A stretch of DNA of 63,285 nucleotides, counting the filler, from Bonamia ostreae (taxonomy: Eukaryota), in the NCBI GenBank assembly GCA_040357525.1. It is 50 parts of 50 records of this genome, joined end to end, with 100 filler letters (N's around TTAATTAATTAA, not from the genome) between each part and the next. Parts side by side here need not be neighbours in the genome. Positions count along the whole stretch, not along the records: positions 3,829 to 5,004 come from JBDODL010002445.1; positions 5,105 to 6,279 come from JBDODL010002446.1; positions 6,380 to 7,553 come from JBDODL010002447.1; positions 7,654 to 8,827 come from JBDODL010002448.1; positions 8,928 to 10,101 come from JBDODL010002449.1; positions 10,202 to 11,375 come from JBDODL010002450.1; positions 11,476 to 12,648 come from JBDODL010002451.1; positions 12,749 to 13,921 come from JBDODL010002452.1; 42 more parts are not named here. One strand, written 5' to 3'. Positions 3,864 through 37,964 of the stretch are shown in pieces; position 1 is the first letter of the stretch, and each line of letters opens with the position of its first letter. The position numbers and the translations under genes are program-made. The notes beneath the pieces were generated by a model that did not search any database, had not been told where the DNA came from, and was given only the letters and a program-made list of their open reading frames with translations.

Positions 3864-4331
3864 TCAATATCCTATTTTAATTACATCCCATTCCTTAATA
3901 CCGGCCATATCAAGAGAGACTTCCCAGTTCGACAAAAATCTGTTTCCGACACTAAAATTGATTTTTCTGTTTTTCAGATTGCTGTAATTGGAAGCGAGTT
4001 GAATGTAGAGATCCCAAAAAGTCGCTGATAACGGCATTTCTTTTAATACGCACACGCCCATTCCTTCGATATGTAGCATTAAGTTGTTGGCGTTATTTTT
4101 GGCTATAGCACTCGTGAACGGTGCGTTTTTGGCAGAATCGTTTTTGTGGATTGAGTCGATTATTCTTTTTTCGTCCGTGAACAAATATTTGCTTGTTGAC
4201 TAAATTTTGTTCAACTTTACTAATGGCTCGGAGAAGGACGGAGATCTCTCGGGCAGACCGAAATCGATTTCTACGAAGGACAGAAGCGAGTTTGATTCGT
4301 GGTGTTGTTTGTAATTGTTGTTATACGCCAT
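3864..4331 (-). CDS. Small protein with probable C-terminal ubiquitin-like domain (protist)
   Basis: ATG at 4331; a 21-nt intron 4200-4220 (gtaaag..atttag) joins two ORFs in frame; the C-terminus (INFSVGNRFLSNWEVSLDMAGIKEWDVIKI) has a ubiquitin-fold pattern. Confidence 0.6.
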
Positions 4332-4432
4332 TTTTACAAAATCTGGAAATACAATTATATGAGAATAGATTAATGTGCAAAAATAGCTTTGGAAAATATA
4401 GAATTGATGCCATAAAGTGCAATTAGCCAAAA

Positions 4433-4932
4433 ATGCTGAAATCGAGATTGAAGAATTGTTTCTTAAGAGCAAAACCTTATTTGTCTGTGGTTAGAGCGAA
4501 TAATCAAATCGGCACTTATTTACTTTTCTTTCCATGCGCATGGAGCACTGGTTTCGAAATTATATTTTATAAAGCTTTTGGAGCAAGTAATGGCTGCTTT
4601 CCCGACTTGAAAATTTTGACACTCTTTTTAAGTGGTTCTTTTGTTATGCGAAACGCCGGCTGCATCGTCAACGATTTAATTGACGTTGATCTTGATGCCA
4701 AAGTAGATAGAACTAAAAACAGACCATTATCTAGCGGACTTTTAACTAAATCAAAAGCCATATATTTCTTGATAAGTCAGCTTTTGATCGGATTAATGGT
4801 CCTCGCTCAATTCAATACGAAAACGTAATAAAATTAATTTGAAGTTTCATTTTAGGTTTTGGGTCAGTACCTTTGTTTTTGGTTTATCCTTACATGAAAA
4901 GGTTGACTTACTGGCCACAGGTTTTCCTATCG
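4433..4932 (+). CDS. COQ2: 4-hydroxybenzoate polyprenyltransferase (UbiA family), 5' part
   Basis: MRNAGCIVNDLIDVDLDAKVDRTKNRPLSSG and VYPYMKRLTYWPQ motifs; introns 4551-4574 (24 nt) and 4825-4844 (20 nt). Confidence 0.95.
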
Positions 4933-5104
4933 TGATAATAGATTATCAAAATTTTATCGCAAAAAATAAAAACTATCAAAAATTTTTCTAAAAATTGCCA
5001 AACCNNNNNNNNNNNNNNNNNNNNNNNNNNNNNNNNNNNNNNNNNNNNTTAATTAATTAANNNNNNNNNNNNNNNNNNNNNNNNNNNNNNNNNNNNNNNN
5101 NNNN

Positions 5105-6064
5105 ATCTGATGATTTCTGAATGCTCTTTGCTTAGTATGTTGAAAGGAACATTCCTTGCAAAGTGCCTCAGGTTCAAGACATGAAAGGCAAAAGGAAGTT
5201 GCGTAGCTAATTTGACTATCCAGGATACATAGTTCACATTTGATTGCATTTTCGTCCATGTGTATAATATATGCCGGCATATCATTAGACAAAACGTGTC
5301 CTCGAGTATTCCTTTGTCGAGTATGATGTCGACCACAGTTATTGCATAATGGTTCTGGCAGCTCGCAAGAAGTACACCAGCATGATGCTGTAATCGACTC
5401 TTCATTTTCAGCGCAAAGGCTACATTCCAGATTTGTTTTTATTTTATCTCTACTGTGCTGTGTATCCTGTAATTATATGCAGAGATGTTTTTTTTTATTC
5501 AGAGAAATAAGTAAATGTGTGCATATTGGATATTTTGAAGACAGTTACATTTGTTAAAAATATTCAAAATTGTCTGATACGAATATATATTAACTTGGAA
5601 GCGTCCCAATTGTTTCCATATTTCATTCCATTGCTATTCATTGAACTTGAATTCATAGATAAATTATTGAAAATAATTGATACCTGTTCAGAAGACTGAG
5701 AATTATTTGGTTTATTTTCCAAATCCGTTTTGATAGAATGACTTTTAAACATTTTTGATCCTGTGTGTTTCTTTGAGCATAAAAGACACATGTACTCTGG
5801 GTCTTCGCAAGTATCGCAATACCCATGGGCTGGCACCCTTTCGTTTTCACCGAAGCAAAGTTCACATAATACTTCTTTTTCCCTGTCTTCCTCAATAGTG
5901 ATTACTTTATGTGACTTAGTTGCACGTTGGGTTTGATGTCGCCGTCCGCATGGCTCACAAAGGTGTATCTGTTCTTCTTTACATACCAGAGAAGCATTTA
6001 CGGATTCACCAACACCATAGCAAACATCACATAAGCTGGTAGAGCAGATATTGTCATCGTCCAT
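5105..6064 (-). CDS. Multi-B-box zinc-finger (TRIM-like) protein, host bivalve, partial
   Basis: Repeated CxxC..C..C..CxxCxxxH..R.TKSHK B-box units across two exons; such genes are expanded in oysters. Confidence 0.8.
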
Positions 6065-7653
6065 CTAGAGAAGATAAGTTATTATTTACTACCTTATAGG
6101 TTCATTTTAAAAGTAAATAATGCTTTCATGTGACATTTACAAATATTTAGAAATCACATAGAATTTGCAGGTCCAATGTTTTACCTGGTTCACAAAGGTT
6201 ACTTTTCTGTTTGAAAATAGCAATTTGAACGCCGCTTTGATTCACCTTGTTCTTCGCTTATTCATGAGTTTTCCTAACGNNNNNNNNNNNNNNNNNNNNN
6301 NNNNNNNNNNNNNNNNNNNNNNNTTAATTAATTAANNNNNNNNNNNNNNNNNNNNNNNNNNNNNNNNNNNNNNNNNNNNTTCTTAGTGAGCATTGCTTAC
6401 AGTAACTCAGTAACATGTCAATCTCTTGTTAGTTTTATTCTATGCATTGTGCATAAGATTTAAATTCCTTTGGGCCTTTCATTTTGTGTTTTCCCTATGA
6501 TCCTTTTCAGAATCATTAACTTTTAGATATAATGTCTTGGTATCAAATATGAAAACCCATCCTTTCTTCATCATTAGGTACATAGGAGTATTTACGTAGA
6601 ATGTTTTACCAAAACTTACAGCTATCGATCCTACTGCATTCTTGACTCAAATACACATGCGCATGTAAAACAAACCGCATAGAAAACACTCATGTAGGAT
6701 AAATGATTATTACAAGCTATTGCAAAAACAGAAGAATAAATTGATGCTGTTATATAATATGCCTTCACAAAATATACAACATATTGATGTAATGATTTCA
6801 GATAATATCCCTTTATAGGCCCTATAAGCTTAGTGCCATAATTCTTGAGAAAAACGAGGTCAAATATAACTCTGACAACGAGGATTTGTTTCTGTGAAAT
6901 AAAAGAAATTCAGAGGAATGTGTAAAACTATAAATGAATATTTTACCTGAATAGGAAGTTCGTCTCAGAATGACATCGATTACAGTGTGACTATCGCTTT
7001 ATCTTTTCTGTCGTGGACTTTACTATTGTATGTGCTTCTAAATTAAGATTATCAGCAGATTTTTCATTGAATCAAAAATGAAAGGACTCAATGTGTGTAT
7101 ATACTGATAGTGGAATTTCCATGTCAATCTTTTCATAAACACGTTTAGCTTAGACGATGATATATCGAATAAAAAAACATGATGTTCCAACAACTATCGA
7201 GTAGAAGTGAGCAGGTCTTAAGTGAGGTAAGAGGCTGTGTAATATTTTAGAATTACGAAAGGATGTTACATACATGTATATAAAAGAAATCCTATCATTC
7301 AATGAACTTGTTGCTATTCAAACAATCCAATATATGTATTTCCCAATTGGATTGCATGTATGTAGTATGACTTTATTGATTAATTCATGATTTAAATATT
7401 TAAGATTTCAAATAACAAGTGGTACTTCAAATTATGAGTTCACAGACATAATTTCAAACATGGATGTTTTTGGTTTTCACGGTAAGTACTGTATGGAAAA
7501 TTGAATTTGTCGTCAGAAAAAGGTCAGTTAGTAAATGAAAGGTGAAGATAACANNNNNNNNNNNNNNNNNNNNNNNNNNNNNNNNNNNNNNNNNNNNTTA
7601 ATTAATTAANNNNNNNNNNNNNNNNNNNNNNNNNNNNNNNNNNNNNNNNNNNN

Positions 7654-7895
7654 TAACAAATATTTGTAAATCGCAAAAAATTACAAAAATCGCGCTCGAT
7701 AAACAAACGAAAATAGAAAAGCAATAAATTACAAAAATCGCGTTCAATAATAACAAATATTTGTAAATCGCAAAAAATTACAAAAATCGCGCTCGATAAA
7801 CAAACAAAAATCGAAAAGCAATAAATTACAAAAATCGCGTTCAATAATAACAAATATTTGGAAATCACAAAAAATTACAAAAATCGCGCACGAAA
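7654..7895. repeat. 97-bp tandem repeat (about 2.5 copies) inside the RPN2 intron
   Basis: Unit starting TAACAAATATTTG at 7654, 7751 and 7848. Confidence 0.9.
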
Positions 7896-7918
7896 AACAA
7901 CAAAAATCCAAAAAAAAC

Positions 7919-8692
7919 TCCGTTCTGGACAATCTCATTTCCGTCCGACTTTTTAAGCGCGTCAACGAAGAAATCCAATCGCTCCGTCCCGTGCCCGGAA
8001 TGCATCAGACCCGCCGCGAACAAGGCTCCCCCTTCTTGATACGGACTACGCCTCACGCCATTCTGCGGCAAATGGGCCTTCAGAAGTTTTTCGAACTCGA
8101 GCGCGTTGCCTTTGTGCACCACTCCGAGACTCGCCACGGCGGAGAACTTTGTCCAGTTCGAACATTCGGCAAACCAAGAAGTGTTTCTGCGCACAAAGCC
8201 GTCTTGGGCTGTGCCACAACGCGCGAATCCGTGCGCGATAATAAGTGCGCCCGTCGAAATCGGATTTTTGTTTCCGACGCTCTGCAACACGGCTCCGAGT
8301 TCCGCCGCGCCGCGTTTACAGGCGCCGTACAGAAACTGCAATTGCAGAAAGTCGAGGAAATGGCCGGTCAGAATTCTCCGAATGGTGGTAGCTCGCGCAA
8401 AGTGCTCCGGGAAAAAATGTGATGAGATTTTAATTAAATCGTCTTTCGTAATTTTTGCGCCGTTTTCTCGCAATTTCTTGAAAGTTTGTTTAGTTTCGTT
8501 CAAAGCGGTTAAAGATTTTTCGACGTTGAAACTTGCGCCGCTGTTTGCGGCGTTTTCTAGAATTTCTTCGAGCTTTATTTTTGTTCCGGCGAGTTCGACT
8601 GTTTCGTCGTCGCAGTAAAACGGAATCATCAAATTTTCGACGACTCTTTTGATCAACTGGCGATCTGTTGTTTCAGCGATGTCGAAAGCGAT
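7919..8692 (-). CDS. RPN2: 26S proteasome regulatory subunit Rpn2/PSMD1, internal exon
   Basis: IAFD..; CGTAQDGFVRRNTSWFAECSNWTKFSAVASLGVVHKG..SPYQEGGALFAAGLMH; exon bounded by AG (ending 8693) and GT (starting 7918). Confidence 0.93.
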
Positions 8693-10917
8693 CTGTTAAA
8701 ATTTTTCAAAAAATTGTTTTTTCGAAATATTTAAAATTTGTTCTTTTATAAAAAGAATTATTTTTTCAATATATTTAAAAATTAATCTATTCTAAAAAAT
8801 TGTTTTTCGAAATATTTTTTTATAATANNNNNNNNNNNNNNNNNNNNNNNNNNNNNNNNNNNNNNNNNNNNTTAATTAATTAANNNNNNNNNNNNNNNNN
8901 NNNNNNNNNNNNNNNNNNNNNNNNNNNTACTCCTACAATCGATTCTCAACTTATGACACCTTCTATCATTTTGTTCAAATTGTCCTAGGTCCAACAAACA
9001 ACACTAATTCATGGAATTCAGAAATACTTATTTTTTATTCAACTTTATTCCAGAAACTTCCATCTAACAGAACCATTCGTACTTTGAATGTGCTCTAGCA
9101 TAATGATATTTGCCCGTGGATATATTCTTAAGTTATCATAATATTACACATTAATATTAACAATCACAGAGAAAGTCGTGTAAACAGTCATAACAAGTGG
9201 AATCCCTTTCTTAATAATTCTGTTTAGAATCTTCTTAAAATGACGTCACCTACGTATTAGAGTTACTCGGCAATGGAGGGTCCGGCGCCTTGTTCCCATT
9301 CCTAACAAAATTGATTTATTTATTGTAGAAATATGTACCCAGCCATTTTTAATGTGTTGATTATTGAAAATTAGAATATCATCAAATTCTAGACTTACTG
9401 AAATACCTTTATTTATTTATTTACACTTGATATTCTAAAAAACACATTGTCAAATTCAAATGAATCATCTCATTGTTTTAATCTTCATCAAACATATCTA
9501 ACTCCAGTCGCAGTTTCTTATTCATTAATTGATAATAAATAATCTGCTCATGGATCTTCTTCTTCTGCTCCACTAAGACTTCGTACTGCATCCAGGTCAA
9601 GTCAGTGGGCTTTATCTTATTTGTGTTCCTGCGTTGGCCAACCACTGGGTTGTGTTGCTGTTTGCAGTCTACAAAAGTGTTTAGATATAAATAAATTTTG
9701 TACATGTAGAAGCGAAGTTCTTCTCAGTTTATTGATTCTTATTTACAATGTGTTATCCATTTTTTCCATGTTGTAACCCATAATCCAGTAGAACATGCCT
9801 TTCAATATGTAAAGGCTGTCAGATGTGGTGACTTTCATGCTCCAAAAATGGTCCAAGAAGTCAAAAACGCTTTATCTACTTAACGGTTCTGGGACAAAAT
9901 CAGACCTAATAATGAACAATGGATTGATACCAGGGAAAAGGTTATGAACGATATGATTGAAAATAAATGCGTATAGGTGCCAATGCTTCTCGAAAAGTTG
10001 AGGGCAGTAAGAAATGACAATGTCTTCGCTGAATCAACTCATAAAGATGCATGGAGCGCGGGCTTGGAAAAACAAGGTACATAACAGTCCAAGATAGAGT
10101 CNNNNNNNNNNNNNNNNNNNNNNNNNNNNNNNNNNNNNNNNNNNNTTAATTAATTAANNNNNNNNNNNNNNNNNNNNNNNNNNNNNNNNNNNNNNNNNNN
10201 NCCAGTGGCAAATGTAGTAGTTAAAAGCATTTGTTGTCAATTCGAAGTGCTGATAATTTTCTGTTCTGAAACAATCAAAATTGATTCATACCGAGCAACA
10301 TTAGGAATACAGCTTCAGTTTCATTTAATTGAACGTTAAATTATACATAACGACTAAACATGACCATTGTTTTGCTCGATTAAATGGTAAGCTTGCATAT
10401 ATGTTTATATACAAGACGGGTAAATATTGCAGGATCCAGTAAAAATAAACCAGGTCCAAGCGAAAATGTTAATTGCTAACTATATGTTAACATTGTCTTA
10501 TGAACGTACAATTTAACATTTGAAATAATGGTGTTAGAAATGTGAATTTCTTCAACGTACAACGAATACTTGCTAGGAGCGTGATAGGAATAGCATCGGC
10601 ATGTTCGTGGTTTTGCATAGAAAAATAAGGAGATATTAAAATAGATTATAAATTAGGAACATTTCCTGAAATATGAATTGATGAGGGAAGCTTCATGTTT
10701 ATGGGTGCGTTAGAATATATGCGGCATTGCTTACACTTGTGGAAAAATATTTCCTAACAATGATGCTCTATACCCTTTCAATTTTGTTGCTATCTATCAA
10801 ACGCATGGGATTTAAAAAATGTAATGGGTAAGTCTTCCATATTCATTTCCACTATCATTATAGAGTGTGTGCATTTGTAATACATTGCTCTATTATGTTT
10901 GATTTTCCATTATTTAA

Positions 10918-12135: not shown

Positions 12136-12851
12136 TCTCGTTCAACAATAAAGAACCAATTATCTGTCCCTCCGTCTTTCCATACTTTTTTAACATAATC
12201 ATCTTTTCTAGAACCACTGGGCTAATTGCATTCAAACTTAGTACAAATCACTCATGGGTACAGGTGATTCAAGTTTATCTAATGAAAAGTCATGCGACTT
12301 CAAAGCGGAGACAATCACAAAAAGGCAAAACATAGTATGTGACCATTTCAGAATTTTTTTAAGAACCACTGGGCCAGACATGTTTACATCAATGATTCTT
12401 GGCATAGTGCATGTTCGTGTTTGTTAAAATATCGGATCCCAGGAGCAGGATGGAACCATAACCGGGGATCAAAATTTTACATGTGAATATCCTGGAAATT
12501 TCTAAAGATCTTCTCAAAAACCACAGGGACATGAATGTTGAATTTTTTATGAAAACTTCCTGACATAAGGTTTACCTAGAAGTTAGACCCACTTCCCATA
12601 GAATTTCCCATATTGAAGTATTAAAAGTAGATCTTTCATATCTTGGATNNNNNNNNNNNNNNNNNNNNNNNNNNNNNNNNNNNNNNNNNNNNTTAATTAA
12701 TTAANNNNNNNNNNNNNNNNNNNNNNNNNNNNNNNNNNNNNNNNNNNNGAAATTAGACATTTGGGATGTTTATAAGCGAGGCTTAAAAAACACAGCAAAA
12801 AAGTAAAATAGACCTTTTTTCATTGAGTCATGGGATCGATTCCTTATAAAT

Positions 12852-13415
12852 TTGGCTTACCATTGCCAACAGGTCATTAACTCCAGGAATGAAAACGATA
12901 CATTCTATTTTCATGAACACTTAAGGCCTATCGTATCACAATTGTATCTACACTTTATTGGTGATCATAGATTCAAAGGTGATCTAAATGCAGGAATAGT
13001 TCTGCATGGAGCCAAAGGAGTAGGTAAAACAACCCTATTAGAGGGGTATGTTAAATACATAGATGCTTCATGGAACAGAAACTTTACTTATTGGAATGCT
13101 CGTAGGTTATCCCTATTAGTAGAGAGAGAAGGGGAACATGTACTTACCAATATTCAAAGAAAGCCTTTGATGTTGGATGAAATAGGGCAAGAGGTAAAAG
13201 AGGTTCTTCATATGGGAACCAGGATAAAACCTATTCCGGAATTAATCAACCTTAAATATGAGGTTGGTTCATGGTTGTTTGGTACATCAAATTACTCATT
13301 CCAGAAATGGGGCGAGATGTATGGAACAACAATATCTACCCGAATTGGTAAAATGTCCAATAGGATAGAAGTAGAGAATATCAATTTAAGGAGAGACAAT
13401 TTAATCAAATTATAA
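12852..13415 (+). CDS. Phage/bacterial P-loop ATPase, DnaC/IstB-like (replication loader-type)
   Basis: Walker A GAKGVGKT, Walker B LMLDEIGQE, then GTSN..YGTTISTRIGKMSNRIEV; intronless; stop overlaps the next ATG (TAATG). True start uncertain. Confidence 0.8.
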   Translation: MAYHCQQVINSRNENDTFYFHEHLRPIVSQLYLHFIGDHRFKGDLNAGIVLHGAKGVGKTTLLEGYVKYIDASWNRNFTYWNARRLSLLVEREGEHVLTNIQRKPLMLDEIGQEVKEVLHMGTRIKPIPELINLKYEVGSWLFGTSNYSFQKWGEMYGTTISTRIGKMSNRIEVENINLRRDNLIKL

Positions 13416-13900
13416 TGCCAGAACAGAAGACATATTGGGATATCAGACGTGTAGAGGGCAAAAGAATAGTACTAGAGCTATTCGATCAAAACAACATGGT
13501 TTTGAGGATGGCCGAAAAGTTCCTAAAGAATAACGCAGTCAGAGCAAGACTTTCGGCGACATTTAGACCAGAGTCCGGAAAGAAGACTAATCCACAAATG
13601 CGGTATTACAGAGGACATCTTCTTCCCTGCATTCATGACGCAATGGTGGAATTAGGCAATAACTTTGAGATAGATCAAACACACGATTTGCTTAAAGACA
13701 TGTTTTATAATGAACGCATGTATATAGAGGGATTGGACCAGGAAATGAAAATCCATGAATCCCTGGCAAGTGCAGGAAAGGAGCGAATGAGTAAGTTCAT
13801 TAATAAATGCTTTGTGTTTGCTCGTGAGGATCTAGGGATATTGGTACATACTCCAGAGGAGTATTATTCAATGATTAAAAAATTAAGTGAAAAAAAATAG
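13415..13900 (+). CDS. NinB-like phage protein
   Basis: KTNPQMRYYRG..HDLLKDMF..SLASAGKERMSKFINKCFVFAREDLGI pattern resembles the NinB family; translationally coupled to the upstream ATPase. Confidence 0.6.
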   Translation: MPEQKTYWDIRRVEGKRIVLELFDQNNMVLRMAEKFLKNNAVRARLSATFRPESGKKTNPQMRYYRGHLLPCIHDAMVELGNNFEIDQTHDLLKDMFYNERMYIEGLDQEMKIHESLASAGKERMSKFINKCFVFAREDLGILVHTPEEYYSMIKKLSEKK

Positions 13901-18060: not shown

Positions 18061-19008
18061 TCAGACTCAGTTTCTTTATTTTCTTCAAATATTCGAAGCA
18101 ATATTCCACTTTTCGGCAATTTAACGTTTTCCTAGAACTTTAACAAACAACCTAAAAGCTCTTAGACACAATTCTTGATAGAGTTCTGCGTTGTCGTCTT
18201 CGTTTAGGTTTTCGACAAACGCGAGACCTTTTAATGTTTTAATTTACATCTTTTGAGCGCGAAGGAATTTTGATAAACGAGAAAAATCTCTTTCGTTATT
18301 ATTTCGGCTTTCCGTCTGTCATCGCACAGATCTTTGTCGTTCATTTCACTAAAAAGCTGCACCGCCATCTTTATTCAGATTTAAACGTTTGGACAAAAAT
18401 AGCAAAATTGAAACGTCGATTCTCTCCTGTTTCGTCGTATCTCTTCCTTCCAAGCTCAGATTCGGAGTTTTCAGCGTTTTTCTGATGCACTGAATCATCC
18501 TTTGGTAACTGTAGAAGTTCTTGGCGATCCCGTGTTTGTCCATCAACTCCAAAACGGCGATCGTGACGTCCAAGTTTCCCATTTGTGACGTGGCTGTTTT
18601 TAGATGGCAATGACATTACAAATGGAACCGAGCAAAAGAGAGTTGTAGCTTTCCACGTTGGGCTTTATTTTGGATTTGCACATTCTTTTGAAAAGGTCGA
18701 ACGCTTTCGAAGCGCCGCTGTCCTAAAGAATATTTTTGATTAAAATGCAACGAATTTCGAGTCGCCCGAAGCGCAAGCCAGAATGGCCGCGTTGAAGGTT
18801 TTCAGTGTCGGGCGGATACCGGATATTTCGTATTGCTCCAAAATATTTAAAGCCTTTCTCGGATTTTGTTCCTTTTGTTTAATTTAAAACTTTGGCGCAG
18901 ATTTTCAGCGCGCAAAGAAGCGTTTTCTCGTTTAGCGGTATTCCGTCTCTCATTATTTTGTGGTACCATTTCCAAGCTTTGACGATGTTTCTTTCTTTGA
19001 GATAGAGG
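18061..19008 (-). CDS. Pentatricopeptide-repeat (PPR) protein, partial (protist)
   Basis: Consecutive PPR motifs (GIPLNEKTLLCALKICAK; GIRPTLKTFNAAILACA; KIKPNVESYNSLLL; GIAKNFYSYQRMI) joined by 19-, 29- and 35-nt GT-AG introns; 3' limit approximate. Confidence 0.85.
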
Positions 19009-19324: not shown

Positions 19325-20077
19325 TATTCTCGGTCGACCAGATAATTGACCAGCCGCGCAATGTTCGCGACTTGATCGTCTTCCGAGTAAACGAGCCCGC
19401 GAGCGCCCAATTCTCGCTGCAATTCCTCCTGTGATAACCTCGCAGGACAGAGTTTGCTGTCTGGTTGCGACACAGACGAGAATTCGCCGCGCGGAATCAC
19501 TTGGGCCATGTCTTGATACATTTGTGGATTGGCTGCGGCCATCATGTCAATGTTCGCTCCGGCTTCTCCCATTTGAGGGCTTCCGACGCCGTAGCTGAAG
19601 TTTTCGTCTGTTTGGGGAATCTGCCCCTGAAAATTTTGGCCGAAGCTGCCTGGGAACAAAGAAGTGTTTTCGTTTCCTCTAATTTTTAAGAAAGAGCAAA
19701 CTCGGCGAAAGCGTAATTTGGAATGTTTTGTTGTTGCATTTCAGGGATCGCTCCGGGTTCGCCGAACATCTCGCCCATTTGAGGAAAGAAATTGGGTTCC
19801 CCGGGAAAATTGGAATTCAGCGGAGTTTGTTCGAAGACGTCTTTTTTCTGTTCTTCGGTTTGATTTTCTTGTTGATTTTCTTGTACGTCTTATTATTGTA
19901 AAATGAGTTTAAACCATTTTTGGTTGAAGTTTGGTTTTCAGATTGTGGTTCAGATTTGTTTTGGTCTGTTTGTTCGATCTGTTCGTTTTTGGTTTCCTTC
20001 GGGACGTTTTCCGTTTCGGGGGAAGTTTTTGTTATGTTTTCCGTTTCAGTGATTGTGGCGCTTTCTTCTTGAGACAT
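19325..20077 (-). CDS. SAP-domain protein with E/T/Q-rich low-complexity N-terminus, 5' part
   Basis: ATG at 20077; 26- and 23-nt introns link three ORFs; ARLSQEELQRELGARGL..NIARLVNYL resembles a SAP motif. Confidence 0.65.
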
Positions 20078-20832: not shown

Positions 20833-21550
20833 TCAATTTATTTTACTCTTGATTTTCCCAAAAGTGGGCAAAAACATGTTCGTGCTGTTTCTGTAATCTT
20901 CATACTCTTCGTATTTTGATGATGTTATCTCTTCGGTCAGTCTTGTTGAAAATTGAAAGAGGATGGTGTAAGTAACAAATCCAATTATCGACCAATTTAT
21001 CATTTTTGTAGAAACAGTGAAACAATAAACGATCGCCCAGTTCATTATTTCGCAAGTAAAATTGGGATGTCGACAGTAGCGAAAAAGCTTTTTACTCAAA
21101 AATTTTCTGTTTTGTTTGTCTTTTTCTTTCTTTAAGTTATATGTTGTAACAACAAAAATTGGTCAAATGTTTTTTATAAAAACGGTTTGGAAATTCCACA
21201 TTTGTTGATCAGCGATGGTTTCGATCGAAAGATTGATCAAAAATAGAATGATTAGAAAATAATCAAAATAATTAATTTCATTGTTGCCACATTTGGAAGC
21301 ATAATAGCTTGGCAAAGTTATAAATAGCAAAAGGAGGTTTTGAAACATTGAAATAAATGTTATATTCAATATCTTTTTATAATAAAAAACTTGAAAAGAA
21401 AAGAAATTCATTTTATTCCGCACAAAAGACCATCTATAATCTTCACTGCCCTTTTTATAACCACCTTTTCGATAATAATTATATGAAAGTCTCATTCCCC
21501 ACATTGAAACCAATATGGCGATGACTTTTTGTCGATCAAAATTATAATTG
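20833..21550 (-). CDS. DUF1295 / steroid 5-alpha-reductase-family membrane protein, 3' part
   Basis: WGMRLSYNYYRKGGY..EDYRW, IETIADQQMWNFQ, LFRYCRHPNF motifs; 18-nt intron 21373-21390 plus an intron of about 54 nt. Confidence 0.9.
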
Positions 21551-22920: not shown

Positions 22921-24090
22921 CATTCAATACTACTGGTATGTATACCATAACTACCAAAATTGATCTGCTCATAAAATATTCGCTCGACGACTTAATATAC
23001 TTGGAAATTATCAATGTGGCTACTCCACTGCCAATCCTTGAAATGAACCCATTGTTTCCGATGTAAATGGCTTTTCTATCAATTCCATCTCGTTTGTCTC
23101 GATTTATGAGAAAACGGAGCATTTTCCTTAAACAGAAAGTACTCGTAGATAACGAAATTCCTCTTAAAAAACAAGCAGCAATCAAGATGATCACAATGCT
23201 TATATTGGCACATAAGAAGAGAGCGAAAGAGAGAATTGATAATAGCATGCTAAGTACAAGCATGTTCTTGGTTCCAAGTTTTTTCTCCGTTTTATCACAG
23301 AAAAAACTATAAAACAAATTTGAAGATGTCATTATCACCAATGACCAAATGAGCCAAGATTTACGACTTAAAATTAAAATAAAAACTGAACATAGTACTC
23401 AAGATATTGTTTTAGGTTTGATATCACTAGTTGATTGCATATTTGAAACAGAAAATTCATTGTAGAAATAGCAATGAAGTAGCAATGTCTGTAAGAAGTC
23501 ACAATGTCGGAAATCCTACACTTTCTTAAGTTCTCATTGTTCTTTTTCTTTACTTCTGGAATTCTTGTAAGAATTAAGAATATATAGAAGCAAAAAAATA
23601 AGAAAAAGGCTGAATAAAATCCTGTTATGGTCAATTTTTCGGACTCATTGTCACTATCATCAGTTGTCACCCAGATCGCTATTCCAGTACCTATTTGAAA
23701 ATTTATGTAATTTTATAAAATGTGTCAATTATTTCTAAACGAAAAACTCAAAAGGGAACCAAACGAGCTGAAAAATGATCTACAGGCGATATATTTATTT
23801 ATGTTTCCATCGTTTGCCAATTCTGAAGCCATTGCCGAATGAGGCACTTTTACAAGACTTTTACCCAAGTTTAAGAAAATGAGCACTGTTATACAATAAA
23901 TCATTTTTGATGAATTGCTGCTAAAATGCATTTTAAGAAAAAAAGAAAAATATGCCAATGGTAGAACAAAAGAAGCAATGAATATGAATATAACGCGGCG
24001 ATATTTTTTCTGGATGCAATCAGACATAGCTCCAAGAATGAAATCAAATGGAGCTGTTAAACACCATACAAGAATGCCAATTGTGCCAAA
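22921..24090 (-). CDS. MFS transporter, MFS_2/GPH (MFSD2-like) family, partial
   Basis: GAMSDC, VPHSAMASELA, DKRDGIDRKAIYIG motifs; three ORFs joined by GT-AG introns, including a probable 20-nt one at 23367-23386. Confidence 0.8.
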
Positions 24091-24650
24091 NNNNNNNNNN
24101 NNNNNNNNNNNNNNNNNNNNNNNNNNNNNNNNNNTTAATTAATTAANNNNNNNNNNNNNNNNNNNNNNNNNNNNNNNNNNNNNNNNNNNNTGCTTACCTT
24201 TTAAGCTCAAAAAAACACATATCTACTATTAAAAAAACACAATATAAATAAATAAAAAAACCAATTTAAAGTTAAAGCCAGCAATCAATAATATGATAAC
24301 AAATCTATACCTCATAAAAAAATATGAACCTCAAATTACAAAGTTTAATTTTTAACAAATTTAAAAAAAAACAAAAATATAATGCAACAGATTATACCAA
24401 ACTTCAATAAAAATAAAAAGATAACAAATTTACAATATAAATAAATTAAAAAAGATAAAAAATATAAATAAGATCATTTTTATTCAAAATAACCTAAAAA
24501 TCACAAAAAATCAACAACGGTGATTATACAAGAATTTTATTCAAATTATCAAATAAAAACAAAAATTCTCACTATAGTAAAAAAACACAATATATCCAAA
24601 ACTACTATAAAAATAAACAATTATAAAATCAATAATAAAAATATTAATAC

Positions 24651-25360
24651 TGGACTAGTAAAATCATCTAGATGCATCTTTGGTTGCTTTAGGTCTTTGT
24701 AAAAAATCTTGACAAGGTCTACCGATGTGTCGTGTAGTCTTTTTACCGAAGCGCCCAACACTTTTGTTGTATCATACATATCCACGTCTAGACCAAACTG
24801 ATTAAAAGGATCGGTATATAGACAATCGTTATACTCGGGTAATTTTAGTAGTATATTACTACACACCGAATCATCGACGTTATCGATCATAGAATCGAGC
24901 GTACGAGGTGTTTCTATTATCAGCTCACGAAGTGATTGGTCTTTTGTAATTTGTACGTCATTATCCATGCGTACCAGTGTTCGGGGTGGATCGATCAAGA
25001 CCATATCGTTTAGCTTATCCCACAATCTGATCATTTTAGCAATATCAACAATCTTCTTGAAATCTTCTATTTTCAATACTGGTTCGTTTTGACCATTCAC
25101 AGGTATACCAATTGTCTTTAGCATATTACAATATCTAAGTCCATAATTCACCTCGTAACCATCGGTTGCGGTGAATATATCCTTATTATCGTCATCTGGT
25201 AACACCTTCGGTATGGTATCCCCAATTAAAAAGATGTCTGGTAACAGATCTACACATGATGATGGCCACGAATCTTTCGGTTGTTTCGACCCGTTTCTTA
25301 CGTCCCAATAATTTTTGATCAAAGACTCTTGATTAATAGGTTCCTCGACAGGTTCATTGG
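24651..25360 (-). CDS. Orphan ORF/exon (at least 236 codons), unknown origin
   Basis: Open from the contig edge to an abrupt switch into T-rich low-complexity sequence beginning with GT at 24650. Confidence 0.6.
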
Positions 25361-27040: not shown

Positions 27041-27064
27041 TATTCACAAAACAAAAATATCCAG

Positions 27065-28000: not shown

Positions 28001-29170
28001 CCCTAACGTTCCACACATAATACCCACAGACCATAGCATCTGTCTATTATGTTCCAATGTTCCTAATGATTGATCAGCAAATTCGCCCCAGGTCTTTGTA
28101 TCTTTAGCAGCTCCCATCATATCTGAGAACTTTTCCTCAAGAGCTTCTTCAAATCCACCTTTAAGTAATCCTAAAAATCCTTTTGCATCTGCAACGGCAC
28201 TACCTGTCTGTGTAAGGAATCTACGTACAGCATTTTTTTGTCCTACTCCAGAAAATTTAGGCTTGAACAATCTCTCTGATATATTCTCTTTAAAAGTATC
28301 GTAATAAGAATTTCCAATGGCATCTAACACACACTCACCTTTGGATATTTTTGTCGCTACGTCTTTATAAAAAGTAGGCATTGCTGCTGTTTGCATTCCA
28401 GATTGGACTAGTTTAGCAGTAATATTTTTGACTCCTCTAGTGATTGCTTTTTTCCCTACTGCCTTAACACCCCCACGGATAGCAGTAGCAGCAGCTTTAC
28501 CAACACCACCTGTTGCTATAAACTCAGCCATAAAACCTAATGATGCACCTAATCCCTCTCCAACTCTATAAGATTCTGGGATTCTCTTATCTATAGCTTT
28601 GTGTATCTCTATATTAGCTCTTAGAGAATTAAAGAGCATCTTTTCTTCTTCAGATAATGTCTTAAATCCACCAGAGGATAACTTTCTATTTAAATCAAGA
28701 AGGGTGCCATTTTGTTTAAGATCATCAATAAGAGTGGCACATTCTGCTCTATATCCAAAAAAGCCTTGTTGCACTCCTGCCAAACCTCTGCCAACAGTTG
28801 AACTTTCTTGGAGTTCAGTGTATAAATCGCTTATCTTTCCTGTATCTGCATTAAGTTTTTGAATAGCACTGATGGCTTCACTATTATATGGTTTATTAGC
28901 AGCAGCTTTGTATGCATAGCCCATAGGACTATCTTCAAATTTATTCATTACTTGCCTTGCTTCAGCATGTCTACCTTGAGTCTCTAATAATCTTATTTGC
29001 TCTGCTACTTGTGGAGCATAAATTTTTAGTACTTCTTTATTCTTCTCTTCAGTTTTCTTTCTTATTTTTAAATCCATATTATCAATAAGATAAAAAGCTG
29101 TATCTCTGGCTTGTTCTACTTCTGATTTTATTCCTTCTTTTGCTGGCTTTTCTTTGATAGGCTTTATATT
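28001..29170 (-). CDS. Fragment of a large intronless phage-like protein (possible internal virion/ejected protein)
   Basis: Whole contig open in one frame; Gly/Ala-rich amphipathic segment GEGLGASLGFMAEFIATGGVGKAAATAIRGG; composition unlike host or protist. Confidence 0.55.
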
Positions 29171-29417: not shown

Positions 29418-30368
29418 CTAAACTGGGAGCTCCATATGTTGTCCCAGCCATTTACTTCGCGCGTAGTAATAGAAAAAATCTGCGTAAAGCACAGTTTGCA
29501 CTATTCCCGCAAACCAAGAAATGTAGTCTCTGTATCCTCGTTCTGTAATGCTCCTGTAAATCCAGTTCAAAAGATAAAACGCCCTATACCCGCCCTGTAC
29601 AATGTTATGACATAGAATGTTACCAGACAAACTACGTAGTGCGTAGTCAAGTTTTCTATGCGCCCGCTCTGCTCTTTCGCGGATTTGTACACAACTATCA
29701 ATTGGGGCACCAACGCAACTGATTCTAAGAATATCGAAAAAGCCCAAAATGTCTAAATAAGTTAATACACAAATTGTCGCCATTTTAATTTACAAAGTTT
29801 CGCTAAATAATTTAAAGCTTTAGTTGATAACTAAAATTATAATTTCGTTAAGCCATTAAAGGCTAAATTTGGATCAGGGATTACAATGCAACGAGGATTT
29901 TTATTTGGTTGCGCAAAATCAATTTTGACGGCCAATTAATAAATCACTAAAGCTGATTGCCGAAATCCGAAAACATTAAGGACCTCGAATATGTTGACGG
30001 ATAAGTTGCAAATGATAGCGAGAAAAGCGCTTGGAGCGACCAAAAACCAAATGTTAAAAGAGTCGTTCTTTTCGTCGTACGTCTTGCAATAAGGCGATTT
30101 GTATTTCATTAAGTACACTATTTCGATCGACGAGCAAATGAAGATGATCTTCATTATCGAATTATAAATCGAATAAAAGTTCCACAGGATATCCAAATAT
30201 CTCGCTGAAAACACTACTGCGTACAAAATCTGCGTCTTCAAAGAAATCCCTCGACACGATTTCTGCGATAGAATTTTTAGAAGAATAAGCAGAACACTCC
30301 CCTAAAAAATCAGGCTAAAAATATGAAACTAGATGAAGCATGTCTCCCAAAAAACGAAAAACGTTCAT
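29418..30368 (-). CDS. ERD2: ER lumen protein-retaining (KDEL/HDEL) receptor, complete
   Basis: MNVFRFLGDMLHL..SCRGISLKTQILY..WAFSIFLESVALVPQL..GGYRAFYLLNWIYR..GIVQTVLYADFFYYY; introns 30302-30329 (28 nt), 29753-29983 (231 nt), 29595-29623 (29 nt). Confidence 0.96.
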
Positions 30369-32082: not shown

Positions 32083-32958
32083 CTAACTGTAAATCACATA
32101 AACAAATTCCCAATCTTCGTACGTTTTCATCTTAGCAAACTTGCAGGTAGACATAAAGACGGCAAGAAAATGCGAGTTCTTTTTGAAACATCGTACTCTG
32201 AATTGGTGTCTGCCAGAATTCACTTTGTGCTCACTTTGATCTAAACGGGCGATAGAATAAGGTACATAATAGTCAGTGAATAAGTAAAAAAAGTTTCCGA
32301 CATTCAAACCGAATAGGAAAATTGATTGCGCAGGCTTATCAGGAGCAGATAATGAACGGTACAAATCAGTTCCATTAATCAAACATTCTCTTACGTGGCT
32401 TGCGAGATGGAAAAAGTCTTCAGATAAGTTATCTTCGTAAAGTGTGTAAAGCGATCGAAGCAGAAAATAACAATGCCTGTCAACAGTCTCATTGTTTGGG
32501 TCTTCTACATATTCGCATTGGATTAAATTGAAGACAATTGCGCCGCTTGGATCAAAGTTCACTGTGCCAGTAAAATCAATTTCGTCCACAAGATAAATGT
32601 TATAACTAACTAAAGTTCGTATCATTATCAAAATTTGTATATGGATTCTCACTTTGTTTGTAAAAATTAAACCGTAATCTTTCGGTTGTAATTCTTGTCT
32701 TTTATTTTTAAACGATTTGTTGTTTAAATTCATGTTTGTCGCGCGTCTATAGAAAAGAAAATAGGGGGAATATAATTCTTGTTGCAACTGAAAAATAAAT
32801 GGTAACAAATGGCAGATATTCTGAATTATCTCTGCTGTTACTCTGTCTCGTTCAGAATATTCAACAAAATTTTTTGAAATATAGAATGAAAATGGTTTCC
32901 CAGAAGAAAATTTGTCACAATCAACTTCAATAAAACTTTTGACTTCGTCTGGTGTCAT
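32083..32958 (-). CDS. Hypothetical 291-aa single-exon protein
   Basis: Long complete ORF in AT-rich context; no family confidently recognised. Confidence 0.7.
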   Translation of the reverse strand: MTPDEVKSFIEVDCDKFSSGKPFSFYISKNFVEYSERDRVTAEIIQNICHLLPFIFQLQQELYSPYFLFYRRATNMNLNNKSFKNKRQELQPKDYGLIFTNKVRIHIQILIMIRTLVSYNIYLVDEIDFTGTVNFDPSGAIVFNLIQCEYVEDPNNETVDRHCYFLLRSLYTLYEDNLSEDFFHLASHVRECLINGTDLYRSLSAPDKPAQSIFLFGLNVGNFFYLFTDYYVPYSIARLDQSEHKVNSGRHQFRVRCFKKNSHFLAVFMSTCKFAKMKTYEDWEFVYVIYS

Positions 32959-33076
32959 ATTTAAAAATATATAAAANNNNNNNNNNNNNNNNNNNNNNNN
33001 NNNNNNNNNNNNNNNNNNNNTTAATTAATTAANNNNNNNNNNNNNNNNNNNNNNNNNNNNNNNNNNNNNNNNNNNN

Positions 33077-33205
33077 GTATTTACGTCGACTGGTAACCGA
33101 TTCGTCAATTTCAACGATCCTATTTTCACCCGATTTTATTTGTTTTCTTATTTAAATACAATAACTTCTCTTAAAAATATTTGTAAAATATTTTTTATCG
33201 TCAAT
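33077..33205 (-). mobile_element. Decayed Merlin/IS1595(ISXO2)-type DDE transposase fragment
   Basis: KQIKSGENRIVEIDESVTSRRKY matches the IGG-G-IVEIDES-RKY motif; upstream FLREVI lies in a shifted frame with stops. Confidence 0.7.
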
Positions 33206-33486
33206 AATTTGTTCATATTATATTCTAAATTCCTATAATTTTTTATAAAAAATGGCCATTTTTTGTACTCAGAAGGTCGTTTTATCTCAAATCTCAATAA
33301 AATTACGCTTTTCACAACATTTGTTGCAACAAATATGCAAAATTCTTAAAATCTTTAAGCTGTGATCTATTTCCATATTATATGTAAATCCACTAAGCAA
33401 AAAATAAAAATTCGAAATTACAAATTATTAAAAAATATCATATAATTTTGATAAACGAAACCTAAGTTTTAAAATTTAGACTATCG

Positions 33487-33761
33487 ATGCCTGTAGATCT
33501 TCTTTACCCAGACCCACAAGAGGAACAAAGAAAACACAAGCTCAAAAGACTTGTGATGAGACCAAACTCTTTTTTCCTCGACGCTGTCTGCGATACTTGC
33601 AATACGATGTTTCATCTTTTAAAGCCAACAGAACTACTATTTTCAGCCACGCTTCGACAGTCGTTTTTTGTCCGAAGTGCAATAAAATCTTGTCCCAGCC
33701 ATCTGGCGGCAAAGCGAGAATTAGTAAAGGCGTAAAGTGCAAGCGCAAGGAAGAGTACTAA
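33487..33761 (+). CDS. RPS27: 40S ribosomal protein S27 (eS27), complete
   Basis: [31 protein letters not shown] | 23-nt intron 33609-33631 | [30 protein letters not shown]. Confidence 0.97.
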
Positions 33762-34029
33762 TAAAAGCATTTTGCTTGTTTTCTTTTTTTCTGATGTACC
33801 ATTTTTAAAAATAAAGCTTCGATTTTTTAAATAGTTTAAAATTTTGTAATATAATTATTAAAGTTTTAAATAAATATAAAGCCGATGCGATATCAAGCGC
33901 ATAACTTTTACAAATAAAAATAAAAACATTAATAAAAATAAAAAAATAGAAAGATAAGCTTAAAAGCTAAACATGTAATTATGTAAAACTGATATAAATA
34001 AGATTTAGCAGAAACAGTTTAGACGAAAA

Positions 34030-34244
34030 ATGGTTTTTTTTCTAAAATTATTAGCCTTTGCGTTTTGAGATCAAGGTTGATATTTTCTATTTTAGAAGGA
34101 ATTTAGTTGTTCTTGTGATCGAGTAAAAAGTGTCGATTTCCATCCGACGGAACCCATTCTCATTCAAAGTTTGTATACTGGCTTTATTCAAATTTGGAAT
34201 TATCGAACAAACAGTTTAGAGAAAACTTTTGAGGTGACCCAATC
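34030..34244 (+). CDS. COPB2: Coatomer beta'-COP (SEC27), 5' end
   Basis: M | 22-nt intron | PLRFEIK | 20-nt intron | KEFSCSCDRVKSVDFHPTEPILIQSLYTGFIQIWNY..KTFEV; not in the ORF track. Confidence 0.95.
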
Positions 34245-34554
34245 NNNNNNNNNNNNNNNNNNNNNNNNNNNNNNNNNNNNNNNNNNNNTTAATTAATTAA
34301 NNNNNNNNNNNNNNNNNNNNNNNNNNNNNNNNNNNNNNNNNNNNTTTTGTAAAGCTGATATTTTAAAACTATATTAATCGATTATGTTATGCTGCGATTT
34401 TTATCATACTACACATTCACTTCATAGCGATTCTTATTGCAATAGTTGAGAAGAACAGATCACGTGACTCACATCTGTAATCATAAGAGGGAGCTCGTAG
34501 CTTCGTTACGCGATGGGAGCTTCGCCTGCTATCAAAATATTCACATGATGGTTT

Positions 34555-34840
34555 GCATCGGTTGTTGTAGCCTAGCGATTAGGGCTCTGACTTCGTTACC
34601 CAGAGACCTAAACTCGATTCCAGATCACGGCACCGTTAAACTATGGCATTGGTAGTGACGGTACATTCACCAAGCGTCCGGTGTCGGAAGTGAACGTCAT
34701 GGGTCTTTCAGATATGACGTTCAAATCCGAGGTCACGCGTCACGGTAGGCGTAGTCACGATGAGGACCACCCTGAGCGTCTTGCATAGATACAAAGTCGT
34801 GGCAATTAGCCTAAAATTATCGAATGAAATGTTAAACAAC
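34555..34840 (+). mobile_element. tRNA-derived bivalve SINE, degenerate
   Basis: A/B-box-like head (TAGCCTAGCGATTAG..ACTCGATTCCAG), central GTAGTGAC..TGGGTCTTTCAGATATGACG..CGAGGTC segment, TGTTAAACAACAAA tail. Confidence 0.6.
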
Positions 34841-36968
34841 AAATACATGCAGACAAATAAAGTCCTTGAACATTACAGCGTTGTGTCCATTATTTCGAGC
34901 AATCCTGTGTTAACATTACATTAGGATGTGTTTAGTGCTAATCTATTTATCTTCTATATCTACGAAGTATTTCAGTGACACAAAACTAAGATGTTCTTAG
35001 ATAATTTTGTATATATTCTTAGTGATAAAAAAAATTATGCATTTGTCAAATGTGCGTCCTTAAAGAATGATTGCAAAAATAAAGCGCTTGGGAATATATG
35101 ATTTATAGCATTAATAAAGAAAAATGCGAAGCCAAACCTACCGCTTCCGATCCACATGCAAAACACTTTTCTTTTCCGTTCAAGTTCGGCGGTTGAAAAT
35201 ACATTGTAATCTGTAAAGAAGGAAAATAAAAATCTGAGATAAAGAAGTTAACACACTTGGTTTTGTTTTTATCTAGATTGTTGGTCACCTGTTCACAAAT
35301 ATTCATTTTTCCTTGTTTAAATGGTTTAAAGTCAAATTAATAGCACAATGTGTATATAAGAATATCTAGCCACATGTAATCAGAACGCTTTGCGTCATAG
35401 CAAAGGCACGCCACGATGTAGTTACGTCAGCGATGAATTCCCTACCGAACGTAAGCAATATATTGATAGTTATGATTTATCCCAACCATGGGGTTTCCGA
35501 ACTATCTATTTTNNNNNNNNNNNNNNNNNNNNNNNNNNNNNNNNNNNNNNNNNNNNTTAATTAATTAANNNNNNNNNNNNNNNNNNNNNNNNNNNNNNNN
35601 NNNNNNNNNNNNACCCCTGAAGGAAGACCCTGATTTGGAAGTTTGAAGTGTGTCGCATTATTTATAATGGAATGACTATGTGTTGTGAAATTCCGTCGAA
35701 AAACTTTTTTTTTCATTAGTTTGTAATGATAAAATACTAACTGTTTGGTAAGTGTGCAACTCTAGTCCTGGATGAATAGTTTTCCACTTTTGATGCGTTT
35801 TCTTGGCCACTATGTACTGTGCTTTATGTATGCATGTGCATCTGAATTTTGGAAGAACTGAATGAGAATAATAGATAATAACACTTTGTGCTCTTATCTT
35901 ATTCCAAATGACAAGTTATTTTGCTGCATTTGTAGATGTTATTGACATGATAACTGCAAATAGAATGCAAGAAAAGCTTTTCCCGCATTTATGTTTTTAT
36001 TTAAACTTTCAAAATGTTTCGCTCAAATATGATTTGTATTTTGTAATTTTTAGCATGGTGACTAAACATATGCTGAATTTCAAACTATTGCAAAACGTTT
36101 TATTAAGCAAACATACATTGCAGGATTCCGACAAATCCTTTCCTCTACTTATAATTATATCGTATAACAGACTATCCAGTAGCTGTGGATTACTTTAATT
36201 AAAAGGGTTCCTCCTGAACACGTTATTCCGCCTCCGATATTTGTAAATGTCCATTTCTACCCTTATTTGATTTTGCTTTGGCATGGAATTGATGAGACTA
36301 TTCTTTATTTCCCCCTTTACCCATGCTATTGATGCTGTTATGATGTACTGTGCAATGTAATATTTTAAGTCAAAATGTGAAGGTAACTAACAGTGAACAA
36401 TCGCATAGTTCCTGTAAAGAATACAAAAGTAAGAATGAGGCAAATGAGGACATCTGGGCATACTAGAGAAGGTATTAGGTGCCTAGTAGGTATCCCCTGT
36501 CAACCGGTCACACCGGTGAAATAAGCCATCAGTTCAGGATTGGCATATATATCAGTTTGAAATCATGGAAATTATTTTAAGATCGTTATAATTATCCATT
36601 TATAGTTAGAGGTTCCTTCCAAATATATTTATTTTACATGTTTGTTTGCAAGCAGGAAACCTCGATGGAAGTGTTGCTATACATGGACTAGCAGAATTAC
36701 CACCATCACTGATGAGCAATCAGGTCCATCCAATAATTCCAAATATACTAGGATAGCTTGTCATTTCGAAAGAATGTATNNNNNNNNNNNNNNNNNNNNN
36801 NNNNNNNNNNNNNNNNNNNNNNNTTAATTAATTAANNNNNNNNNNNNNNNNNNNNNNNNNNNNNNNNNNNNNNNNNNNNTAATATGCATTAATCAACTTT
36901 GCTTTGTTACAACGATAAACCAATAAATATTGTTACAAGAAACAGACAAAACTTGTTTAAGTTTGCCG

Positions 36969-37964
36969 CTAAAACACTGGCACAATAGCGGCGTCTGCTG
37001 AGATCATTTTGATGCTTATAACTGTTCTGTTAAATTTGTCTCTCATCGATCCACTCACTCGCCCAGTTTGTACAAACTTTACCAATTGCTCAAAGTTATC
37101 TTTTAGTTGATTCGCAGTTTCCGTCGGTTGCGCTTCTAAGAGAGCCTTTGCGAAGAATTGCAGCAGAACTGGTTTGAACACGAAGACGGAACAGAGCGTC
37201 CGTGTTAGAGAAAATTGGTTGTTGCAATTGTCGAATAGAACCAATTGAAACACGTCAGAAGTGAGCTTCATCAAACGGTCGATTTGGCTTTCCATTTGTT
37301 TCAGCAGTTTCTCAAAGTTGTCTGGCTTCCTCGTCTTAGACTGGTTGTCGATTATATATAAACACAAATGATCCAACTTTTTATATTCAGTTTATGTAAA
37401 AGGGTGTAACAATGGAATATTTTTAACTATGAATTATGGCTAATTTTAAGCCACTGAAAGTTAATTTTAGCTAATTTTAGCAACTGAAAAAGATTTTGGC
37501 TAATTTAAAACGGAATTGGCTGCTTTGACTGAGTGATTTGAATTAGTGCTTTGTACACCGTCGCAAACAGTAACAAAGATTTTATTAAAAATGTCTTCTG
37601 TAAAATCGCAGACCAAAGCAATGTGCTTTTCGAACAGCGTTTCGATCAAAGAATAATGGATCGCCGCCATTTTTGGATAACTCTGTTGATTCGTAAAAAA
37701 TTAAAAAAAATTTGTTTTTATTATTTAAACAAATTTTTATATTAAAATATCAAAAACATAAATAGTTTCAATGGGAATCGATAAAACGAGGTTAACAACT
37801 GAACTGACTATTTCCTTCAAAGTATTGTCTTTATAGAATTCGAAGGAACCGAAGGGAATGTAATTTCCAGAAAGCATTCTGAAAGTTATTTCCATCATCA
37901 AAATTATTCCCTTTATTCTTTTTTATTCTTTGTTACGACATATCAAAATTACTTAAAAACAACG
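36969..37964 (-). CDS. XPO7: Exportin-7/RanBP16, C-terminal exons
   Basis: IKGII..LSGNYIPFGSFEFYKD, YPKMAAIHYSLIE, LFDNCNNQFSLTR, RDKFNR motifs; includes a 19-nt (or 22-nt) intron ending at 37918. Confidence 0.85.

Follow-up and report, generated by a model that had tools for sequence, protein, structure and literature searches.

Introns near the minimum length with a long tail in Bonamia ostreae, and a predicted pair of U1 genes that may divide two donor classes

The window analyzed here is a stretch of 63,285 nucleotides from Bonamia ostreae (GCA_040357525.1), which joins 50 unrelated contigs of 1,159-1,176 bases each by spacers of the form N44-12-mer-N44, and its protist genes were studied for ultra-short spliceosomal introns. 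The source genome contains 10.29 Mb in 7,503 contigs. According to a composition score against a host-like background, 22 of the 50 window contigs are protist; the remaining 28 do not score as protist, which points to much host-like or other DNA among the short contigs of the assembly. A PCNA exon in the window shows 100% identity to a protein named Bonamia ostreae in NCBI and UniRef, and excision of its repeat-filled intron of 301 nt (61208..61508, minus strand) gives the B. ostreae database protein exactly; the protist is accordingly B. ostreae, a haplosporidian that parasitizes oysters.

The first-pass annotation of the window had proposed that conserved proteins are restored only by removing 11 GT-AG segments of 18 to 24 nt, together with segments of 28 and 29 nt in ERD2 and pentatricopeptide repeat (PPR) genes. 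All 11 have GT..AG at their ends and the lengths proposed, and the 28-nt (30302-30329) and 29-nt (18723-18751) segments are likewise present in the sequence. Seven of the 11 are supported by homologs and two by reading frame or gene model only, while the other two (4200-4220 and 37918-37936) have competing boundaries. The word "only" does not hold for the 18-nt and 24-nt segments, whose frames remain open if they are kept.

The shortest segment lies in a DUF1295 gene (21373..21390, minus strand, 18 nt); it has a GTT donor, a length divisible by three and no stop codon. In a hidden Markov model comparison with 120 homologs, its excision scored highest of 16 variants (166.7 bits, versus 156.0 bits when retained), and the open reading frame (ORF) carries exactly six extra residues relative to 83 of the 120 homologs and 2-5 extra relative to the other 37. 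The UbiA/COQ2 gene on the plus strand contains an intron of 20 nt with a GTAA donor (4825..4844), whose removal adds 48 bits, and one of 24 nt (4551..4574), also divisible by three and without a stop, whose removal adds a modest 3.8 bits. Removing both was the best of 248 variants, with 164.7 bits, compared to 116.2 bits with the 20-nt segment kept and 160.9 bits with the 24-nt segment kept. In RPS27 (eS27), the two halves of the protein lie in two frames that meet at a 23-nt segment (33609..33631, plus strand) and match chain residues 2-44 and 41-82. The beta'-COP gene, on the same strand, shows a first intron of 22 nt immediately 3' of the ATG (34033..34054) and a second of 20 nt (34076..34095); its third exon begins at residue 7-9 of solved chains, and the ATG plus the 21-nt exon encode eight residues.

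Posterior probabilities were obtained with a self-trained gene model whose intron-length prior was flat (1/L) from 14 to 1,500 nt. On the minus strand, the PPR gene contains introns of 19 nt (18872..18890, GTT donor, posterior 0.99) and 29 nt (18723..18751, posterior 1.0), and PPR matches on both sides of the former fall in different frames. The model also predicts a 20-nt intron with a GTAA donor at 18228..18247 (posterior 1.0), absent from the first-pass list, and one of 23 nt in a gene without homolog (19679..19701, posterior 1.0). Further minus-strand segments are the ERD2 (KDEL receptor) intron of 28 nt (30302..30329) and a probable 20-nt intron in a major facilitator superfamily (MFS) transporter (23367..23386, posterior 0.56), which is flanked by MFS matches in different frames on a contig of ambiguous composition (log-likelihood ratio -0.011). 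At 4192..4220 (minus strand) a short intron has either 21 nt (4200-4220) or 24 nt (4192-4215), the gene model favoring the latter (posterior 0.94 versus 0). Finally, 37918..37936 (minus strand, 19 nt) is a plausible candidate for an acceptor end in a gene which we take to be exportin-7-like and whose homologs have about 1,100 amino acids: an acceptor is required because of an in-frame stop, and none of the 11 possible donors gives an upstream exon with a homolog match.

Evidence of splicing came from X1, an RNA-like run listed as 'RNA?' and one of two runs that contain part of the window, which was compared with the first 10 kb of a longer contig outside the window (L029, G000:C25:1-10000). 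X1 skips 13 segments of this locus, of 18, 19, 20, 20, 21, 23, 25, 28, 29, 31, 73, 73, and 323 nt. All 13 are GT..AG, with a chance of 0.054 per segment; in missing just these segments X1 resembles cDNA. Within a single gene one RNA contig skips 25, 73, 28, and 31 nt, and the 18-nt skip lies in a gene adjacent to the 73- and 323-nt skips, so that short introns are removed next to long ones; the first-pass annotation had reasoned that one spliceosome would have to handle both extremes. Of 25 introns modeled on this locus, 12 are skipped exactly and one is skipped from another donor (21 nt instead of 15). At L029:9299-9546, introns of 19, 20, and 26 nt (posterior at least 0.93) are retained in an RNA contig that splices upstream introns of 18 and 21 nt, possibly through inefficient or incomplete splicing. 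A second run, X2 (share 0.09), covered few 3' ends and no junction on this locus. At L029:3741-4880 a single RNA contig spans two converging genes, which suggests that the 3' ends of the genes overlap or that the contig is a join.

The length distribution was studied in a population sample made of the first 10 kb or less from each of the 80 longest contigs, of which a CpG filter removed one, leaving 717,487 bases. The model placed 1,229 Viterbi introns, 714 of them at a posterior of at least 0.9, or about one confident intron per kb. These 714 peak sharply at 19-22 nt, a range that takes in 286 introns (75 of 19 nt, 115 of 20 nt, 38 of 21 nt, and 58 of 22 nt), above a floor at 18-19 nt, with only seven introns of 14-18 nt. 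The median is 25 nt; introns no longer than 25 nt number 373, those above 35 nt 247 and those above 100 nt 102, and the longest reaches 699 nt. The first-pass annotation had described a continuum instead of a narrow peak, and this must be replaced by a sharp peak with a floor and a long tail. The 18-nt skip in X1 and the DUF1295 test speak against a strict cut-off at 19 nt. When the same model was run with three decoy dinucleotide pairs replacing GT-AG, it found 96, 85, and 93 introns without a peak, a 7- to 8-fold excess for GT-AG. A blinded control, in which the donor and acceptor matrices were masked, gave 432 introns with the same length shape. Given the homolog tests, X1 skips and decoy controls, it is almost certain that the ultra-short segments in the protist contigs belong to a population of real spliceosomal introns with this length distribution.

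Acceptors follow the order AAG > TAG > CAG and show no pyrimidine tract, the pyrimidine fraction being 0.51 in short introns and 0.43 in long ones. In introns of 19-25 nt, A reaches 0.63 at -8 and 0.55 at -7, compared to 0.27-0.28 at -5/-6, so that A is enriched 7-9 nt from the 3' end; in long introns, TAA ending at -8 occurs 28 times versus 10.8 expected. From this composition we infer that the A at -7/-8 is a putative branch point at a near-fixed distance from the AG, and this distance would account for the length floor. An intron of 19-20 nt would then consist of the donor, about 11-12 nt, the branch and the AG, and the introns would be major (U2-type) introns shrunk to the smallest size that the spliceosome accepts.

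A long intron would be the same module, extended between the donor and the branch through local slippage, with AT-rich and often tandemly repeated sequence. Long introns are AT-rich, and 87 of 184 contain a tandem repeat versus 36 after shuffling. Median intron length drops as locus GC rises (rho -0.58, 74 loci) and adjacent intron lengths are correlated (rho 0.39, n=350), although 25 of the 350 adjacent pairs join one intron of 25 nt or less to one of at least 100 nt. Intron sequence conservation is weak. The tail probably arises from expansion by local slippage, opposed by a bias towards deletion.

The donors of the 714 introns fall into two classes, a GTTT(T) majority and a G/GTAAWTTT minority (the slash marks the exon-intron boundary). 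GTT is found in 651 (GTTT in 505, GTTTGT in 15) and GTA in 48 (GTAA in 37, GTAAG in one), with U at +3 in 91% of donors. Positions +3 and +4 are coupled: A at +4 occurs in 37 of 48 GTA donors versus 53 of 651 GTT donors (p 5e-27), and the blinded model gave 46/58 versus 45/356. The homopolymer bias within introns (probability of A after A 0.57, of T after T 0.54) accounts for part of this coupling, but not all. A GTAA intron is among those removed in X1. Loss of METTL16 was considered as the origin of the +4U donors (cf. PMC10581693) and was ruled out by PF05971 matches: a METTL16-like gene is found at two loci (L099 and L100; G000:C606 and C1632) on protist-type contigs, despite the +4U donors.

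Two predicted U1 small nuclear RNA (snRNA) genes were found in the genome. U1a (G000:C1288:766-921, minus strand) matches Rfam RF00003 with an E value of 2.7e-10 over model positions 1-166, and has the full four-stem fold, the 70K and U1A loops, an Sm site and an snRNA promoter element. In the register set by the closing helix, its positions 4-8 are AAAAC, complementary to GUUUU, where the Rfam consensus is CUUAC. U1b (G000:C414:3711-3826) carries the canonical ACUUACCUG and is cut off by the contig end. The same 15-nt upstream element and a TATA-like box precede U1a, U1b, U3, U4, and U5, and these are the only five exact copies of the element in the genome; allowing up to one mismatch there are 29 matches, versus two for a control. 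The predicted snRNA starts lie 45 to 47 nt from the element, so that U1a would begin with AAAAC or slightly upstream of it; these starts are Rfam alignment and motif positions, not RNA ends. Protist genes with introns of 20-22 nt adjoin both U1a and U1b.

Of the other snRNAs, U4 (94.4 bits) and U5 (68.2 bits) were matched above the Rfam cut-off. Judged by its promoter spacing, U5 (L098, G000:C1871) may start about 30 nt upstream of the Rfam match, which would give it an additional 5' hairpin; its loop 1 is canonical. A doubtful U2-like candidate (L065, G000:C951:368-514, minus strand; 21 bits, E 0.95) keeps the branch-recognition segment intact, immediately preceded by an insertion of 2 nt, and has a stem I loop of 24 nt. 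The candidate is not preceded by the shared 15-nt element and extends over the predicted start of a neighboring gene; it may be a functional U2 or a relic. A U2 pattern search found nothing above control. For U6, the Rfam family search of the incomplete assembly gave, among the matches listed, only three with E values of 0.2-1; pattern searches stayed at control level (137 versus 116 and 38 versus 32 matches), and neither 40 small candidate stretches nor a duplex scan against U4 gave a U6 match. One stretch, L113, appears complementary to U4 and was rejected as U6 for lack of U6 features. One-mismatch copies of the promoter element followed by TATA-like boxes occur at two further loci (L156, G000:C462:2705, without an Rfam match; L164, G000:C2018:1324), which are possible novel small RNAs.

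The sequence of both U1 genes predicts features of the donors. As expected from U1b, T at +6 to +8 is commoner in GTAA donors (80/138 versus 285/738 in the blinded model, p 3e-5), as is G at -1 (26/46 versus 60/246); as expected from U1a, G at +6 is slightly commoner in GTTT donors (77/505 versus 200/2020, p 0.001). Among the 505 GTTT donors, 357 pair better with U1a and 61 with U1b. U1a would thus read GUUUU donors and U1b canonical GUAA donors, the donors being most likely divided between them. The presence of U1b overturned the reading that Bonamia, like Entamoeba, has one rewired U1 and no other. We also asked whether donor class or U1 type separates short from long introns, and rejected this (medians 24 versus 25 nt, p 0.56); donor class is independent of intron length, and therefore two U1s do not explain the length extremes.

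We lean slightly towards two U1 small nuclear ribonucleoproteins of different specificity in one major spliceosome, a rewired one for about 90% of introns, GUU(U), and a canonical one for about 7%, GUA(A), down to 18 nt. The statement as a whole, with minimal U2-type introns, a long tail, two donor classes and a U1 pair that divides the donors, we regard as fairly probable. Several observations weigh against it. Splice evidence from X1 comes from one locus, as contigs whose RNA status is guessed and which give no splicing rates; four of the 25 modeled introns there are bridged unspliced, one of them in a doubtful gene, and eight are undecidable from the listed output of X1. The decoy counts imply up to about 13% false positives, and the model undercounts stopless introns divisible by three, as in the 18-nt DUF1295 intron, a true one that received a posterior of 0. 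The branch point is deduced from base composition. Among the donors, 172 of 714 fall outside both classes, 103 of them pairing better with U1b; U at -1, the partner of A9 in U1a, is depleted in GTT donors (0.16 versus 0.36 in exonic decoys), G at -1 is enriched in them, and the +5G predicted by U1b occurs in one of 37 GTAA donors. As for the snRNA genes, U1a scores 47.4 bits, under the Rfam gathering cut-off of 69.5, and has one change in the loop of stem-loop II; upstream DNA could fold over its AAAAC if transcription began about 16 nt earlier; U1b is truncated by the end of its contig; and the searches found no U6 and only the doubtful U2 candidate.

An origin of the segments in misassembly, or in insertions into the coding sequence of pseudogenes, has next to no likelihood and is largely refuted. 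In its favor are the fragmentation of the assembly, its admixture of host-like contigs, and the three high-posterior short introns kept in one RNA contig; against it stand the GT..AG ends of all 13 skipped segments, the homolog alignments regained on removal, the sharp length floor, the strong donor and branch signals and the excess over decoys. The introns could also be real and served by U1b alone, with U1a a dispensable variant or an RNA with a role outside splicing. GUUU donors would then be read by a mismatched U1 together with the exon-side AG, U5 loop 1 and U6, whose ACAGA box would pair with +4U. The exon side of GTT donors (A at -2 in 0.57, G at -1 in 0.30, U at -1 depleted) fits canonical pairing and not A9 of U1a, the score of U1a is under the cut-off, and budding yeasts, Mamiellales and Thecamonas are given in the available part of bioRxiv 10.1101/2022.06.08.495308 as cases of atypical +4 with unchanged U1. 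We consider this unlikely, though worth serious weight, since U1a retains the promoter element with its TATA spacing, all four stems, the 70K loop and the Sm site, its changes affect exactly the positions facing +3 to +5 and lead to the complementary base, and the 91% of donors with +3U and the better pairing of most GTTT donors with U1a point the same way.

The opposite arrangement, in which U1a has functionally replaced U1b as in Entamoeba, leaving U1b a decaying relic and the GTAA donors ancestral leftovers, appears improbable. It agrees with the 93% of donors that are not GTA, with the near absence of +5G from GTAA donors, and with the state of U1b itself, which has an extra hairpin in stem I, an altered 70K loop and its 3' half beyond the contig end. 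Yet the promoter element and recognition segment of U1b are intact, the -1G and the T at +6 to +8 of GTAA donors match U1b specifically, and a GTAA intron is removed in X1. A division of the donors between U1a and U1b is the reading preferred here.

Other features of the window were also recorded. Upstream of RPS27, at 33077-33284, lies a short element that recurs on nine other contigs, with 14 additional matches at 79-100% identity. A tRNA-Gln(CTG) gene is found at 42678-42749. Two overlapping intron-less ORFs at 12807-13900, one with a weak AAA ATPase match, have non-protist composition and are possibly phage or bacterial; intron-less ORFs at 28001-29170, 57090-58249, and 24621-25360 (389, 385, and 245 amino acids scanned), also of non-protist composition, showed no Pfam match. 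Outside the window, an AT-rich contig (L004, G000:C7503) carries mitochondrial-looking rRNA genes, and was the only match of a nuclear small subunit rRNA search of the genome.

In practice, gene models for B. ostreae need a minimum intron length of 18 nt or less. If the division of donors is true, U1 co-evolution would here be seen at an intermediate stage, duplication being the route to a rewritten donor consensus, and the U1 pair would bear on how a genome-wide splice-site consensus shifts without breaking existing introns.

Concerning the species itself, the accessible part of the B. ostreae genome paper describes introns as 'canonical', with two per mRNA, and four of its supplementary files contain, as far as available, no mention of intron length (PMC11069148). 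In one supplement of that paper, the single orthogroup annotated 'U1 snRNA binding' is listed with the 145 gains of B. ostreae, a weak hint: the gain is not significant after correction, also occurs in M6MM and possibly reflects split gene models. A literature search over titles and the beginnings of abstracts, with most subscription papers outside it, found no Bonamia intron lengths, donors or U1 genes, and the tiny introns are apparently undescribed in print.

Among the relatives of Bonamia within Ascetosporea, the mikrocytids Mikrocytos mackini and Paramikrocytos canceri are reported to have 224 introns, all of 16-17 nt and conserved in sequence, a reduced spliceosome in which no U1 was identified, and incomplete splicing of 37-63% (PMC10245619, in the part available). 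Bonamia resembles them in GT-AG-type introns near the minimum length and, as the retained introns hint, in incomplete splicing; it differs in its floor at 18-19 nt, long tail, weak conservation and two U1 genes. The same paper summarizes introns of 18-21 nt in the chlorarachniophyte nucleomorph and 15-16 nt in heterotrich ciliates, where the minimum is similar or slightly smaller and the range is narrow, without a tail. Unlike these narrow-ranged systems, with a spread of 2-4 nt, Bonamia has 247 of 714 introns above 35 nt and skips of 73 and 323 nt in X1. With its tiny introns Bonamia joins the lineages close to the smallest size that can be spliced, and it may represent the state of such a length distribution prior to the loss of its tail.

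Closer in length are the myxobolid myxozoans and dicyemids, in which the accessible part of PMC13644364 reports medians of 22-27 nt beside introns over 100 nt in the same genomes, a bare AG acceptor, a weak A stretch as likely branch point, and clustering of short introns. Bonamia shares a median below 30 nt with longer introns present, the missing pyrimidine tract, the bare AG, the weak A signal and the clustering of neighbors; since these lengths are already described, its length pattern is of a known type. Their donor is reduced to GTa with no altered U1 reported in that text, whereas Bonamia has mostly GTTT donors (GTT 651/714, GTA 48/714), a mode at 19-20 nt and the U1 pair.

For the donor, the nearest case is the intron-poor Entamoeba, with GUUUGU in 88-90% of donors and a single co-evolved U1 (AACAAAC), Mastigamoeba being discussed beside it (bioRxiv 10.1101/2022.06.08.495308, as far as available). 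Bonamia agrees in U at +3 and +4 in most donors (505 of 714), in a U1 changed to A at the facing positions, which makes its segment complementary, and in a putative branch about 8 nt from the 3' end. It differs in degenerate GUUUU donors without +5G (GTTTGT in 15 of 714, compared with a near-invariant GUUUGU), in a second GUAA class and in retaining a canonical U1. Entamoeba represents an end state, its one U1 being rewired, and Bonamia would have both versions with statistically matching donor classes; since both coexist, the duplication route is testable with public reads. In Fritillaria borealis, a duplicated U2AF has been proposed to serve two splice-site classes in the major spliceosome (PMC13326754, in the part available); the duplication concerns 3' sites there, and its two U1 versions have identical 5' ends, whereas those of Bonamia differ. 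A 2026 tunicate paper, in its accessible part, treats U1 duplication as a plausible route, one that was not followed in that lineage and that may be under constraint. With its two donor classes and matching U1 pair, Bonamia shows a variant of the known co-evolution of donor and U1, in which the two U1s would share the donors between them.

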